Origin: an uncultured Bacteroidota bacterium | Lineage (GTDB): Bacteria; Bacteroidota; Ignavibacteria; UBA10030; UBA6906 | Direction of reading: 5' to 3' | DNA length: 64,000 bases | NCBI GenBank assembly: GCA_963700635.1 | Contig: CAVOYH010000004.1 | Coordinates: 192,001 to 256,000 of the forward strand | Part shown: piece after piece, positions 16,600 through 20,746 of the stretch | Layout of the letters: every line of letters starts with the position of its first letter | How positions within the stretch are numbered: position 1 is the stretch's first letter | Translations under genes and position numbers: made by a program | The notes under the pieces: model-generated | What the model was told of the DNA's origin: nothing | Databases searched by the model: none | Seen by the model: the letters and a program-made list of their open reading frames with translations, nothing else

Positions 16600-17568
16600 G
16601 TGCTGCGCATAAATCTGCTTGTCCACATTCACAGCGCCGGATTACGGCGCGACCTGAGGGTGTTCCAGGAAGCCCTGAAGGGCCTCCCCGTCCGGCTGAC
16701 GGTTACCGCATTTGATCCCGCATGGCTCCCGCGGCTCGGGCGGGGCATCCGTCGGGCGACAGGGACAGTACTCCCCGGGAAACTCTACGACATTAATCTT
16801 TTTGTGGAAGAGATCGCCCCGGCGTGGATGCCCCTTGCCCGGGTGAATTGCCTGGTGCCTCACCAGGAGTGGTTTACCGATCTTACCCGGACCCATCTGC
16901 AGCGCATGGACTGGGTCCTCTGCAAATCACAGTTTGCGGTACAGATGTTTGAATCAATCGGGTCCCGCACAGCGTACACCGGATTCACCACCCTCGATCG
17001 TTATGATCCTTCTGTCCGCAAAGACTTTTCTGAATCCGTGCATGTCGGCGGAAGCAGTCGCCAGAAAGGCTCGGCCACGGTCAACACTGTCTGGTTGCAA
17101 CACCCTCAATGGCCCATGCTGACGATCCACTGGTACGAGCCTGCGGCACATCCCGTGGAGGCCTCGAACATCCGGTGTGTGAGATCATTTGTGGATGAAC
17201 GTACGTTAAGCAACACGCAGAACAGGTGTGGGATACACCTGTGTCCCTCGGAAGCGGAAGGATTCGGACATTATCTCGTTGAGGCAATGAGTTGTGCCGC
17301 TGTTGTGCTGACGACCGCCGCTCCGCCAATGAACGAACTGGTTCAACCGGAGAGGGGAGTGCTTGTCGGATATCATCGTCAGGCCCCCCAGGGGGTTGGC
17401 ATGAACTACTACGTCGATCCGGTCCTGCTCGGGGAAGCCGTGGAAGGGGTGCTGGGTACAAGTCTGCTCGAGCGTGAACGGATGGGCAAACGGGCAAGGG
17501 AGTGGTTCCTTGAGAATGACCGCCTTTTTCGCACCAGGTTGTGGGAAGTGCTCCAGGGAATTGCCTGA
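16600..17568 (+). CDS. GT-B (GT4-like) glycosyltransferase
   Basis: HLCPSEAEGFGHYLVEAMS (EX7E) and PPMNEL motifs. Confidence 0.78.
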   Translation: MLRINLLVHIHSAGLRRDLRVFQEALKGLPVRLTVTAFDPAWLPRLGRGIRRATGTVLPGKLYDINLFVEEIAPAWMPLARVNCLVPHQEWFTDLTRTHLQRMDWVLCKSQFAVQMFESIGSRTAYTGFTTLDRYDPSVRKDFSESVHVGGSSRQKGSATVNTVWLQHPQWPMLTIHWYEPAAHPVEASNIRCVRSFVDERTLSNTQNRCGIHLCPSEAEGFGHYLVEAMSCAAVVLTTAAPPMNELVQPERGVLVGYHRQAPQGVGMNYYVDPVLLGEAVEGVLGTSLLERERMGKRAREWFLENDRLFRTRLWEVLQGIA

Positions 17569-17597
17569 AAATGGGACGAGCCGATTTGACTACGGTA

Positions 17598-17626
17598 TTG
17601 AAAATTTCTGAGAGAAGTCGTATATT
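17598..17626 (+). promoter_or_regulatory. Sigma70-type promoter for tRNA-His/hisS/hutH
   Basis: TTGAAA-N17-TATATT ending 10 nt before the tRNA. Confidence 0.65.
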
Positions 17627-17636
17627 AAGTATTCTT

Positions 17637-17710
17637 GCTGGCGTAGCTCAGTTGGTTAGAGCACCAGATTGTGGATCTGGGGGTCACAGGTTCAAATCCT
17701 GTCGCCAGTA
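17637..17710 (+). tRNA. tRNA-His(GTG), non-canonical acceptor (no G-1, G1:U72, A73), CCA not encoded
   Basis: Acceptor GCTGGCG/CGCCAGT, D-arm GCTCAGTTGGTTAGAGC, anticodon stem CCAGA/TCTGG with loop TTGTGGA, T-arm ACAGG-TTCAAAT-CCTGT. Confidence 0.95.
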
Positions 17711-17748
17711 CACCCTCCCCCTCCTCATACGCGAACGCAATTCCGACT

Positions 17749-19213
17749 ATGGCCGACGACCGAACTGTTGAACCACGGCTGCTGCGCGGATTCAGGGATT
17801 ACCTGCCCGCGCAGATGAACGCCCGACTCAAACTCATTGCCACCATCCGCCAGGTCTACGAACGGTATGGGTTTCTTCCCCTTGAAACGCCCGCGCAGGA
17901 ATACAAGGTCACGCTCCTGGGGTATGGCGAAGAAAACACCAAACAAATCTTCTGCTTTAAGAACCCCGAAGAAGAAGATGTAGCGCTGCGGTTCGATCTG
18001 ACCGTTCCCCTCGCCCGTGTTGTCGCACAATACCCCGATCTGCCTCTCCCGTTTCGCCGTTACCAGATTGCGCCGGTCTGGCGTGCCGACAAACCGGATC
18101 CGGGCCGGTTCAGGGAGTTCCTGCAATTCGATCTCGACTCCGTGGGAGTGTCGTCTCTCGCCGCCGATGCGGAGATTCTGACCGGTATGTACGATACGCT
18201 TGAGGCGCTTGGACTGCATCAGTCCGTTGTCCGGTTCAGCAGCCGGAAAGTGCTGAACAGCCTGCTGGACTATGCCGGGATACCCCGTACGATGGCGCAT
18301 GGGGTGTTTCGTGTGCTGGACAAGCTGGAGAAAATTGGCCGGGAAAACGTCGCGGCGGAACTTGCCGGAGGACGTGTTGATGTCTCGGGCGACAAAATTC
18401 CGGGGTTGGGCCTCGGCAGAAAAGCTATAGACCACATTGAAGAGTTTCTGGTTTTGCCGAAAGGGACGCGGGAAGAGGTCTTGCAGGGAATCACACGTCT
18501 GTTTGCCGGGGTCGATACAGCTTCCGAGGCAATACACGAGCTCGATTTTCTCTGCACATCACTTGACGTTCTGGAGATTCCAGAGGAAAGAGTGGCCCTT
18601 GACCTGAGCATTGCGCGGGGGCTGGACTACTATACCGGACCGGTGTTTGAAGCGATGCTCACAGAAGCTCCCGAGTTCGGGTCAATCTTCGGGGGGGGGA
18701 AGATACGACGGTCTTGTTGAACGATTCCTGGGTCGGAAGATTCCCGCTGTCGGGGCCTCTATCGGTGTAGACCGCCTCTTTGCGGCCATGCAGAAGCTTG
18801 GCCTCTTCTCCATGGGGAATGCCACGGCGCAGGTTCTGGTAACCATCATGGAACCCGGCCGGCTGGCGGATTATCAGCGCCTTACGAGACAGCTGCGGAA
18901 CGAAGGCATCAACACGGAAATGTATCTTGGCGAAGAGCGTAGTCCGGGCAAACAACTCCAGTACGCCAACCGGCAGCATATCCCTGTCGCCATCCTCATG
19001 GGCAGCAACGAGTTCCAACATGGCGAGGTAACGATCAAGGACCTTGTGCTGGGTGCAGCAATGCAGGACAAAAAGAAAACCATGACCGGAAAAGACCGAG
19101 AACGGTATCTTCAGGAAACGCGGACGGTGCAGGTGACGGTTCCTCTTGCCGAATGTGCCGTCACGATCAGATCGATCCTCGCCCGTCACGATAAATCACA
19201 ACCTCCGGGATGA
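17749..19213 (+). CDS. hisS: Histidine--tRNA ligase, split by +1 frameshift in G9 run at 18691-18699
   Basis: RGFRD, LRFDLTVPLAR, motif 2 RADKPDPGRFREF, IARGLDYYTG, GGGRYDGL restored by removing one G, anticodon-binding domain. Confidence 0.93.
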
Positions 19214-19228
19214 ACGAGGGATCAACCC

Positions 19229-20746
19229 ATGCCCAAGACTCTTCAGATTGATGGTAGCTCGCTGACCATCGATCGTGTTGTTTCGGTGGCGCGTCATGGT
19301 GTGCGGGCACGCCTCTCGCCGCTGGCACGTGAAGGAATGCGACGTTCCCGCGAATGGGTAGAGCGTGCGGTCCGTGAACACGCGGTGGTGTACGGTGTGA
19401 CCACGGGGTTCGGGGCATTTCAGAACGTTTCCGTCCGTTCCGAACGCCTCCGGGAGCTTCAACGGAATCTCATCCTCAGCCACTGTGCCGGAGTGGGCCC
19501 TCCGTTCGCGGAAGAAATTGTCCGTGCCATGCTCCTCCTTCGCGCGAATGCGCTCGCACGGGGTCATTCGGGGATACGTATCGCCGTCGTCGAGCGGCTC
19601 CTGGAGATGCTTCACTGTGGTGTCCATCCTATTGTGCCCGAACAGGGCTCTGTGGGCTCGAGCGGTGATCTGGCTCCACTTTCGCATGCTGCGGCAGTCC
19701 TCATCGGTGAAGGTGAGGCGATCTATCGGGGGAAACGGATGAGCGGGAGGAAGGCGATGCGCGCTGCCGGTCTCAAACCGGTCGTGCTGGAAGCGAAGGA
19801 AGGACTGGCTCTAAACAACGGCACACAGGCAATGACCGCCGTTGGGGTGCTGGCTGTTCATGATGCCGGCCGCCTGGCGGATCTTGCTGATATTGCAGCC
19901 GCATTGAGTCTGGAAGCTGTCAAGGGAAAAAGTACCCCGTTTGCGGAAAAAGCCCTGGCCACACGCCCTCATGCAGGACAGGCCCGCTCCGCCCGTAATA
20001 TCCGGACAATGATCGCCGGGAGCCGGCTGGTGGACCGTGTAGACCATGATACCCGGAACAAGGTTCAGGACTCGTATTCTATCCGCTGCGCTCCGCAGGT
20101 GCACGGGGCATCTCGGGACGCCATTGAATACGTGGCGCGCGTTGTGGAGACGGAGATCAATGCGACAACCGACAATCCGCTGATCTTCCCGGATTCCAAC
20201 GAAGTCTTCAGTGTCGGGAATTTTCACGGACAACCCGTTGCTCTCGCAATGGATTTTCTCGCGCTCGCGGTTGCAGAGCTTGGAAATATTTCGGAGCGGC
20301 GGACTGCCAAATTGATGGACCGCGAGCACAGCTGCGGCCTCCCGCCGTTTCTTGCCGTGGATGGCGGACTCGAGTCGGGCCTGATGATCGAGCAATATAC
20401 CGCTGCAGCGCTGGTGTCGGAGAACAAAGTCCTCATCCATCCTGCCAGCGGTGATTCGATCCCGACCTCTGCGAACCAGGAAGACCATGTGAGCATGGGG
20501 ACCATCGCGGCCCGGCAGGCGCGCCAGGTCATTCAGAACGTGGAACACGTGATTGCCATAGAACTCCATGGCGCCATCGAGGCCCTTGCGTATCGATCCG
20601 AACGTCCGGGTGAAGGAACGCGCAAGGCGCTCCGCATGTTGCGAGAAGTGGTTCCCCCTCTCCGCGGTGACCGGCCGTTGTCTCAGGACATCGAAGCCCT
20701 TGTGCAGTTCATCCGCAACGACGCCCTTCGCGCCCTTGTCCGTTAG
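19229..20746 (+). CDS. hutH: Histidine ammonia-lyase
   Basis: VYGVTTGFG, GSVGSSGDL (MIO tripeptide SSG variant), QDSYSIRC, NQEDHVSMG. Confidence 0.9.
   Translation: MPKTLQIDGSSLTIDRVVSVARHGVRARLSPLAREGMRRSREWVERAVREHAVVYGVTTGFGAFQNVSVRSERLRELQRNLILSHCAGVGPPFAEEIVRAMLLLRANALARGHSGIRIAVVERLLEMLHCGVHPIVPEQGSVGSSGDLAPLSHAAAVLIGEGEAIYRGKRMSGRKAMRAAGLKPVVLEAKEGLALNNGTQAMTAVGVLAVHDAGRLADLADIAAALSLEAVKGKSTPFAEKALATRPHAGQARSARNIRTMIAGSRLVDRVDHDTRNKVQDSYSIRCAPQVHGASRDAIEYVARVVETEINATTDNPLIFPDSNEVFSVGNFHGQPVALAMDFLALAVAELGNISERRTAKLMDREHSCGLPPFLAVDGGLESGLMIEQYTAAALVSENKVLIHPASGDSIPTSANQEDHVSMGTIAARQARQVIQNVEHVIAIELHGAIEALAYRSERPGEGTRKALRMLREVVPPLRGDRPLSQDIEALVQFIRNDALRALVR

Follow-up and report, generated by a model that had tools for sequence, protein, structure and literature searches.

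G-1, the G at position -1 of tRNA-His, is among the most conserved identity marks in biology, and its loss in bacteria has so far been treated as a single alphaproteobacterial event and as a phylogenetic marker, for example in the placement of SAR11. This report concerns a tRNA-His gene without G-1 and the gene for histidyl-tRNA synthetase (HisRS, gene hisS) directly downstream of it, found in a 64,000-nucleotide stretch of DNA (the window) from an uncultured Bacteroidota bacterium (GenBank assembly GCA_963700635.1, contig CAVOYH010000004.1, positions 192,001 to 256,000 of the forward strand). In their passages on histidine identity, PMC3245924 (2012), PMC3937112 (2014) and Giege and Eriani (2023, PMC9976931) restrict the G-1-less system to some Alphaproteobacteria. 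A full-text literature search, from which subscription journals were excluded, found no paper on a tRNA-His and HisRS of this type outside that class.

The canonical system, known from E. coli and Thermus thermophilus (2el9, 4rdx), combines a templated G-1:C73 and a G1:C72 pair with the HisRS motif 2 sequence ERPQxGR. The enzyme of the window belongs to the same family and would perform the same reaction (TIGR00442, PF13393), and the canonical system is found in relatives of the same order. In the window, however, position -1 is T, position 73 is A and the motif 2 Gln is missing.

The closest described counterpart is the alphaproteobacterial RRCH group (Caulobacter crescentus, Rhizobiales, Rhodobacterales and most SAR11). 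Its tRNA-His resembles that of the window in the lack of G-1, in A73, in G1:U72 and in a nine-nucleotide D loop with U20a, and its HisRS in the missing motif 2 Gln, an extra loop in the anticodon-binding domain, a GRxD.SGD insertion and membership of one HisRS clade. As set out in the sections of Yuan et al. (2010, PMC3064791) that deal with the alphaproteobacterial enzyme, U72 is a major identity element among the tRNA-His features of this group, and HisRS of this type carries "several unique insertions", one of them unique among class IIa anticodon-binding domains. The measurements given there for Caulobacter HisRS comprise a 91-fold loss for U72C, 91- to 1000-fold losses for anticodon changes, 3-fold for A73C and 5-fold for an added G-1; a transcript starting at +1 is fully charged. 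A figure legend in Amrine et al. (2014, PMC3937112) places Gly123 in motif 2 of the alphaproteobacterial group, compared with Gln123 elsewhere. The window differs from the RRCH group in three respects. Its host belongs to the Bacteroidota group, outside the alphaproteobacterial clade of the literature; its motif 2 reads DKPDP rather than EKPGP, with Asp where that legend stresses Gly123; and its tRNA-His lies directly upstream of hisS, which is followed by hutH, whereas in six alphaproteobacterial loci tRNA-His was not linked to hisS within 3 kb.

Two other systems deserve comparison. Certain protists (Trypanosoma brucei, Acanthamoeba castellanii) likewise lack G-1 and Thg1 and have a non-canonical HisRS, and the trypanosome structures 3hri and 3hrk match the protein of the window at E 1e-30. 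These systems are eukaryotic, however, and are handled as separate cases where PMC9976931 and PMC4338351 discuss them. The phage-borne tRNAs described in PMC5389517 also combine a missing G-1 with A73, but in that description they have an 8/4 geometry of acceptor and T stem and no linked synthetase. The mechanism is therefore already known; the novelty lies in the range of hosts, in the linkage of the genes and in the nested position of the alphaproteobacterial clade.

The tRNA-His and HisRS of the window

The locus comprises the following features.

17598..17626, + strand: promoter-like site TTGAAA-17 nt-TATATT (sigma-70-like), with 10/12 consensus matches, ending 10 nt before tRNA position 1
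17637..17710, + strand: tRNA-His(GTG) of the G-1-less type (ARAGORN, Rfam)
17711..17748, + strand: spacer of 38 nt with a C/T-rich 5' end, between A73 and the hisS ATG
17749..18699, + strand: N-terminal part of hisS, 317 codons, with the catalytic core, the motif 2 loop and the GRVDVSGD insertion (TIGR00442, 239.1 bits, profile positions 2-283; PF13393, 131 bits)
18691..18699, + strand: run of nine G that breaks the hisS frame (GGG GGG GGG A AGA ...); eight G would keep it
18701..19213, + strand: C-terminal part of hisS, 170 codons and stop, with motif 3 and the anticodon-binding domain, including an insertion of about 20 residues, GAAMQDKKKTMTGKDRERYLQETRT (TIGR00442, 104.1 bits, positions 283-400)
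19229..20746, + strand: hutH (histidine ammonia-lyase), 15 nt after hisS (PF00221, 655.8 bits; TIGR01225, 676 bits against a cut-off of 539)

The tRNA-His gene was recognised by ARAGORN and by Rfam RF00005 (74.5 bits, E 1.4e-16) and folds into a standard 7/5 cloverleaf. Base 17636, position -1, is T, and a templated G-1 is absent. The acceptor stem opens with G1:U72 (G17637 with T17709), followed by C2:G71, and the discriminator is A73 (17710) in place of C73. The D loop has nine nucleotides with U20a (AGTTGGTTA), and CCA is not encoded. ARAGORN itself ended the gene one base too far (17637-17711); annotation tools that presume G-1 will misplace the ends of such tRNA-His genes.

The hisS gene runs from an ATG at 17749 to a stop at 19211-19213. 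The motif 2 loop of its product is WRADKPDPGRFREF (WRADKPDPGRF), in which Gln is absent and Asp occupies the Gly position; in the alignment this loop is KP-DP in the window, KP-GP in Alphaproteobacteria and PQ in relatives that bear the Gln. Two insertions accompany this loop. The first, GRxD.SGD...GLGL in the HisRS insertion domain, is shared by the window and Alphaproteobacteria and absent from Gln-type HisRS in an alignment of many genomes. The second, of about 20 residues with a conserved R-x-x-[W/Y] in the anticodon-binding domain, aligns with the corresponding insertion of alphaproteobacterial HisRS and is likewise absent from the Gln type. The best structure matches (6nhi, 3net, and human cytoplasmic, archaeal and trypanosome HisRS, E 1e-30 to 4e-52) come from the archaeal/eukaryote-like branch, which places the enzyme there; the Thermus, Staphylococcus, Burkholderia and E. 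coli structures match at 1e-11 to 1e-18 and over the N-terminal half only.

Both genes are the only ones of their kind in the genome. The assembly that contains the window measures 4.2 Mb in six contigs, is 97% complete with 6.7% contamination, and has a single tRNA-His among its 47 tRNA genes. PF13393 matches in three places, namely the two pieces of hisS and a gene on contig 1. The latter is hisZ by its TIGR00443 score (281.6 bits against a cut-off of 271.65); its open reading frame does not extend beyond motif 3 and includes no anticodon-binding domain, and its stop is overlapped by a hisG-like open reading frame of 211 residues that was recognised by eye rather than by a family scan. The PF13393 profile search found no second HisRS in this genome. 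Thg1 (PF04446) had no match at E <=0.1 here or in ten other genomes, five of them relatives, with positive controls in Methanosarcina. Contamination or mis-binning was considered and ruled out, since the locus is part of a contig of 1.02 Mb and occurs across the family. A chance arrangement is not at issue either, since this is the only tRNA-His of the genome and the same layout recurs in related and unrelated genomes.

Taken together, these data point, with a probability of about 0.85, to a functional G-1-independent identity system of the Caulobacter kind, consisting of the sole tRNA-His and HisRS of the organism in a tight unit of tRNA-His and hisS followed by hutH. In such a system the tRNA would be transcribed from its own promoter and probably co-transcribed with hisS. 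RNase P, whose type A RNA was found in the genome (247 bits), would cut at the ordinary -1/+1 site and leave a seven-base-pair acceptor stem starting with G1:U72, because U-1 lies opposite A73 and there is no G-1:C73 pair to shift cleavage. The 3' end would be completed by a CCA-adding enzyme; a gene of the PolyA_pol/CCA-enzyme family is present. HisRS, having lost the motif 2 Gln and gained the anticodon-domain insertion, would then recognise its tRNA by the GUG anticodon and U72 and to a lesser degree by A73, as the Caulobacter measurements suggest by analogy.

The sequence-only reading, an earlier note on this DNA, had pointed out T at 17636, G1:U72, A at 17710, a hisS start 38 bp further on, an atypical motif 2 loop, and GRVDVSGD and KDLVLG...RERY insertions. 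The three tRNA features are all in the sequence, and the spacer of 17711-17748 before the ATG agrees with the spacing given. The loop does lack its Gln, and alignment with Gln-type HisRS upholds both segments as true insertions. The note had also proposed a search for a second tRNA-His, hisS or Thg1; that search found none and confirmed the two genes as sole copies. T at -1 is real but is no special mark, being merely the commonest -1 base among the tRNAs of this genome. The note passed over a break in the hisS frame, which is due to one extra G in the run of nine.

Occurrence and descent of the pair

Relatives were collected in a scan with one genome per species, which yielded 332, and the counts below refer to the best 80 loci of those 332. 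The search patterns included FREFLQFD, so that the sample is biased towards that branch of HisRS. Loci labelled Bacteroidota, Ignavibacteriota or Chlorobi encode HisRS with 67-86% identity to that of the window, and alphaproteobacterial loci 42-44%. Further labels are Zixibacteria, WOR-3, Stahlbacteria, Acidobacteriota, Planctomycetota/Phycisphaerae, Krumholzibacteriota, Patescibacteria and Eisenbacteria, so that this HisRS type occurs in metagenome-assembled genomes (MAGs) labelled as about ten phyla.

Of the 80 genomes, 58 had a tRNA-His that could be typed; 35 of these tRNAs came from the 3-kb flanks of hisS, and 23 were located elsewhere by means of a covariance model trained on 24 of them. 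In 56 of the typed genomes HisRS lacks the motif 2 Gln, and tRNA and enzyme vary together. G1:U72 with A73 was found in 51 of the 56 and G1:U72 with G73 in two; G1:C72 with A73 and C1:G72 with A73 occurred once each, the latter in the L066 genome (L155), where the HisRS motif reads YDKPEP; and one tRNA was cut by a contig end. G-1:C73 was found in none (0/56). Two rows were mis-registered, L008 with its tRNA at the locus edge and L049 at a contig end. Two genomes of the candidate phyla radiation (CPR) with Gln-type HisRS have an ordinary G-1:C73 tRNA-His.

Linkage is frequent. In 35 of the 80 loci the two genes are no more than 3 kb apart: tRNA-His precedes hisS on the same strand in 31, generally by 25-150 nt, is divergent from it in two and follows it in two. 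It was not within 3 kb in the six alphaproteobacterial loci. In three alphaproteobacterial genomes (G322, G325 and G326; loci L077, L080 and L081) a G-1-less tRNA-His was seen about 11, 6 and 10 kb from hisS, a loose linkage for which the shared contig is confirmed in G322 only.

In the phylogeny of HisRS (87 rows, 460 columns, IQ-TREE with LG+G4), all sequences without the Gln form one clade of 53 rows with a support of 99 in the Shimodaira-Hasegawa-like approximate likelihood ratio test (SH-aLRT), and a FastTree of 160 rows recovered the same single clade. All supports given here are SH-aLRT values from short searches. The clade is placed inside Gln-type archaeal/eukaryote-like HisRS. Within it, the lineage of the window falls into a subclade of 20 rows (support 96) with Zixibacteria, WOR-3, Stahlbacteria and one Planctomycetota sequence; HisRS labelled Planctomycetota and that of the Bacteroidota group each occupy several separate positions; and the alphaproteobacterial enzymes are nested. 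After 17 more alphaproteobacterial HisRS from a 151-genome sample of that class had been added, all NEKPG[PA] sequences formed one clade (26 rows, support 94), whose successive sisters are two representatives, the divergent HisRS of G213 (described below), another representative and a Planctomycetota sequence (87, 88, 99 and 99). The HisRS of the window again grouped with the alphaproteobacterial enzymes in this expanded tree, in a clade of 50 rows (98). An approximately unbiased (AU) test rejected a single group of all non-alphaproteobacterial members (p 0.000126, log-likelihood difference 144), a group that was named after the tree had been seen.

Within the window's own phylum the pair is rare. 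Together with 300 further genomes of the phylum, 301 were searched and 10 contain this HisRS, the strong matches having 57-80% identity. Strong matches occur in six of the seven genomes of the family, in one of 24 of the order outside the family, and in one of 42 of the class, to which the divergent copy of G213 is to be added; among the genomes searched from the rest of the phylum there was no strong match. The seventh family genome (G037) has neither hisS nor tRNA-His and has hisZ only, which is read as an assembly gap and not as an absence. The tRNA follows the enzyme here as well. All nine typed genomes of the phylum with this HisRS have G1:U72 and A73 without G-1, and all 17 cleanly typed genomes with another HisRS, five of them of the same order, have G-1:C73 and G1:C72; G295, G075 and G119 were poorly registered and are excluded from the 17. 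The HisRS of G069, a genome of the same order, is E. coli-like, with the motif 2 FRQERPQAGRLRQF. The tRNA-His of the window is 89% identical to a G-1-less tRNA-His of Krumholzibacteriota and 85% to one of Planctomycetota; with tRNA-His of the G-1 type from its order the identity is 62-74%.

One genome of the same class stands apart. G213 encodes a divergent HisRS (hisS at C1:1031224-1031955, motif 2 YETKLDPGRFREFWQLD) that belongs to a subclade related to that of Alphaproteobacteria and not to the subclade of the window, and its tRNA-His, with G1:U72 and A73, lies 0.7 Mb away (C1:1744969-1745042). The pattern suggests an independent acquisition inside this class.

How the pair reached the family of the window can be argued in two ways. 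One is vertical inheritance from a deep ancestor, with the patchiness produced by many losses or replacements and the adjacency maintained for regulation. It is in keeping with this that no mobile-element genes (integrase, transposase) flank the unit and that its context of hutH and an aldo-keto reductase is conserved within the family, so that recent mobility is not evident; nor is adjacency universal even there, the tRNA of G053 lying 8.3 kb from hisS and those of G009, G285 and G293 on other contigs. The lack of such mobile-element genes also counts against the transfer that is preferred here, as does the likeness of the tRNAs across phyla, which could be due in part to constraints shared under the same type of enzyme. 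Vertical descent is nevertheless unlikely, given the restriction of this HisRS to 10 of 301 genomes of the phylum (1/24 in the order outside the family, 2/42 in the class), the scattered positions of Planctomycetota-labelled and Bacteroidota-group HisRS in the tree, the alphaproteobacteria-related subclade to which the enzyme of G213 belongs, and a tRNA that resembles the G-1-less type of two other phyla more than the G-1 type found in its order. The preferred reading is that the pair replaced an E. coli-like HisRS and a G-1:C73 tRNA-His in the ancestor of the window's family, one large multi-phylum clade of HisRS having probably moved as a linked module of tRNA and synthetase.

The sequence-only reading had suggested that an organism of the FCB lineage carries the alternative system as a cassette of tRNA and synthetase, which would explain how an incompatible pair can be transferred, and had named a HisRS phylogeny and a survey of tRNA-hisS adjacency as ways to examine this. 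The labels of the family-level relatives (Bacteroidota, Ignavibacteriota or Chlorobi) agree with such a host, the phylogeny groups the enzyme with the alphaproteobacterial type (SH-aLRT 99), and the survey found the linkage in 35 of 80 loci that span many phyla. The cassette exists, although not as the isolated case it was thought to be; it is one member of a large multi-phylum clade. Its part as a route of transfer is supported by this linkage, by the patchy distribution in the phylum and by a tRNA closer to the G-1-less type of other phyla.

The locus thus speaks for a tRNA-synthetase module that is widespread and probably transferable. A wider proposal, which is held tentatively and given slightly less credence than its opposite, is that the G-1-less system is an old module of many phyla (tRNA-His and hisS, often with hutH) that is horizontally mobile and no alphaproteobacterial invention, that it repeatedly replaced G-1:C73 wholesale, and that the ancestor of Rhizobiales, Rhodobacterales and Caulobacterales was a recipient and not the source. 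If this were true, the replaced lineages would include the Bacteroidota group, Zixibacteria, WOR-3, Acidobacteriota, Planctomycetota and Krumholzibacteriota; the trait could no longer be regarded as a unique synapomorphy whose HisRS derives from eukaryotes; and rules of tRNA identity would cross phyla by tRNA and synthetase riding on one piece of DNA. That the same co-adapted pair turns up across many phyla, mostly with its two genes side by side, provides a concrete way for an otherwise incompatible identity system to be passed on and become established, and calls for caution in the use of G-1 loss as a clade marker. It also widens the pool of natural HisRS/tRNA-His pairs that are possibly orthogonal to that of E. 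coli; such orthogonality, which the earlier note had raised as well, is plausible for the present pair by analogy. The evolutionary implication is substantial; the biochemistry would carry over by analogy with Caulobacter.

The hisS reading frame and the 5' end of the tRNA

Several points weigh against a functional G-1-independent pair, one of them being that hisS is frameshifted as assembled. Its coding sequence is split over two frames, of which the first reaches a stop at 18720, while RYDGLVERF... is read from 18701. Eight G at 18691-18699 would restore FGGGRYD, universal in motif 3, and give the text FGGGRYDGLVERF; for the analysis the gene was taken as two pieces or with an X at the break. 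The 119 best database relatives (its own product excluded), which are 74-86% identical, are all full length at 474-495 residues. Among 37 close loci, 33 have GGGRYD in frame with G runs of <=6, the region not having been found in the locus for the other four. Outside the window, in the same genome, two further genes are split at G runs. A G8 run interrupts xseA (G000:C4 ~949957, L192) at profile positions 84|88, and a G10 run separates the N from the C domain of a glycoside hydrolase of family GH2 (G000:C4 ~155013, L193). The genome contains 115 G/C runs of at least 8. From the intact relatives, the two split genes and these runs it follows that the extra G is probably a homopolymer or assembly error.

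The opposite possibility is that hisS is a true pseudogene, or one that needs slippage at the nine G, with histidylation carried out by something else or at a low level. The frame is after all broken in the assembly, and at 97% completeness and 6.7% contamination another gene could be unassembled. A coarse genome-wide screen for frame breaks at homopolymers gave 2.1-3.6% for runs of 6 to >=9 compared with 2.0% at random positions; with no excess of such breaks, the assembly is not generally error-ridden. As the screen did not discriminate, 11 candidates at runs of >=8 were inspected in its place, and Pfam scans were made on two of them, xseA and the GH2 gene. In one DNA sequencing run, contigs covered 17644-17807 only and were mostly tRNA bodies of other organisms, so that the G run was left uncovered; one contig of 152 nt was identical over 17656-17807. 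Loss of function is still quite improbable. The genome has no second HisRS, its other PF13393 gene being hisZ, and hisS is an essential gene that is otherwise perfectly conserved, with 87% identity to L004 over its full length and no other stops. A programmed shift is not conserved, the G run being absent in the relatives examined, and the breaks in xseA and GH2 at G8 and G10 are of the same kind and resemble an artefact of base calling or assembly.

Other points touch recognition and expression. With Asp in place of Gly in motif 2, details of recognition may differ from those of alphaproteobacterial HisRS. The nine-nucleotide D loop does not discriminate within the window's phylum, where tRNA-His of the G-1 type likewise has nine. 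The mature 5' end and the identity elements of this tRNA we infer by homology with the alphaproteobacterial system. Co-transcription of tRNA-His and hisS is probable from a consensus scan, in which one promoter-like site was found in 17300-19500 compared with 0.8 expected in shuffles, a weak signal on its own. By eye, TATAT-type boxes also precede tRNA-His in relatives, and a sequence scan found no terminator-like site on the + strand between tRNA-His and hisS.

The base at -1 deserves separate mention. RNase P prefers U-1, and T is the most frequent -1 base over the tRNAs of the genome (23/47). All six alphaproteobacterial genomes sampled have T as well. Of the 54 genomes with this type of HisRS whose tRNA was reliably typed, 40 have T and the other 14 have C, A or G. 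Since it is commonest genome-wide and not conserved, T at -1 is more readily taken as an ordinary RNase P context than as a U-1:A73 identity pair. That the mature tRNA-His keeps a -1 nucleotide, either a G added opposite A73, the eukaryotic discriminator opposite which Thg1 adds G-1 according to the passage on eukaryotes in PMC3245924, or a U-1 that in those 40 genomes could pair with A73 as an identity element, is hardly credible beside the absence of Thg1 matches in the genomes searched, the loss of the Gln tied to reading of G-1:C73, the variable -1 base, and the reported charging by Caulobacter HisRS of a +1 transcript with efficiency lowered 5-fold by G-1 (PMC3064791, in its kinetic data).

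Neighbouring genes and further histidine tRNAs

Downstream of hisS, hutH is the only aromatic amino acid lyase gene of the genome, and hutU lies on another contig. A hutH homolog stands beside hisS in 42 of the 80 loci and in several phyla, including Zixibacteria (L039, L040), a locus labelled Patescibacteria (L052), Phycisphaerae (L054, L056, L058) and Planctomycetota (L063). Two variants, 63-87% and about 41% identical to that of the window, occupy the same position within the window's lineage. The hutH product has Ser-Ser-Gly in the residues GSVGSSGDLAPLSH (window about 19655-19675), at the place that we take to correspond to the stretch forming 4-methylideneimidazole-5-one (MIO), presumably Ala-Ser-Gly in histidine ammonia-lyases.

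A C/T-rich tract such as CACCCTCCCCCTCCTC abuts the 3' end of the tRNA in the lineage of the window, both in the window itself (17711-17735) and in the loci L007, L012, L014, L028, L035, L053 and L061. Two tRNA-Thr genes of the window's genome, tRNA-Thr(CGT) at C1:389831-389904 and tRNA-Thr(TGT) at C3:1617217-1617290, share the acceptor 5' strand GCTGGCG with tRNA-His. Because the 3' strands differ only at position 72 (C in tRNA-Thr, U in tRNA-His) and the discriminator of tRNA-Thr is U instead of A, U72 and A73 are the sole acceptor-end differences between tRNA-His and both tRNA-Thr.

In two loci with Gln-type HisRS (L073 with GEKPQK and L082 with GEKPQL), tRNA-His lies directly downstream of hisS (L073:4394-4470, L082:4398-4474). 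Its CCA is encoded, position -1 is T, the first pair is G1:C72 and the discriminator is A73 or U73. Thg1 was not found in either genome, and these genes may represent a further non-canonical histidine identity; the two CPR genomes with ordinary G-1:C73 mentioned above belong to the HisRS clade of these two loci. With the queries used, no tRNA-His was found in G321 (the L076 genome) or G306 (the L038 genome). The L004 genome (G301) has two matches to the G-1-less tRNA-His model, of 100.2 and 95.7 bits on different contigs, of which the first was read. Finally, a MAG labelled as an uncultured Flavobacteriaceae (L083/L151) encodes an NEKPGP HisRS that falls inside the alphaproteobacterial clade, together with a G1:U72/A73 tRNA-His with encoded CCA, which reflects either a doubtful label or a transfer.

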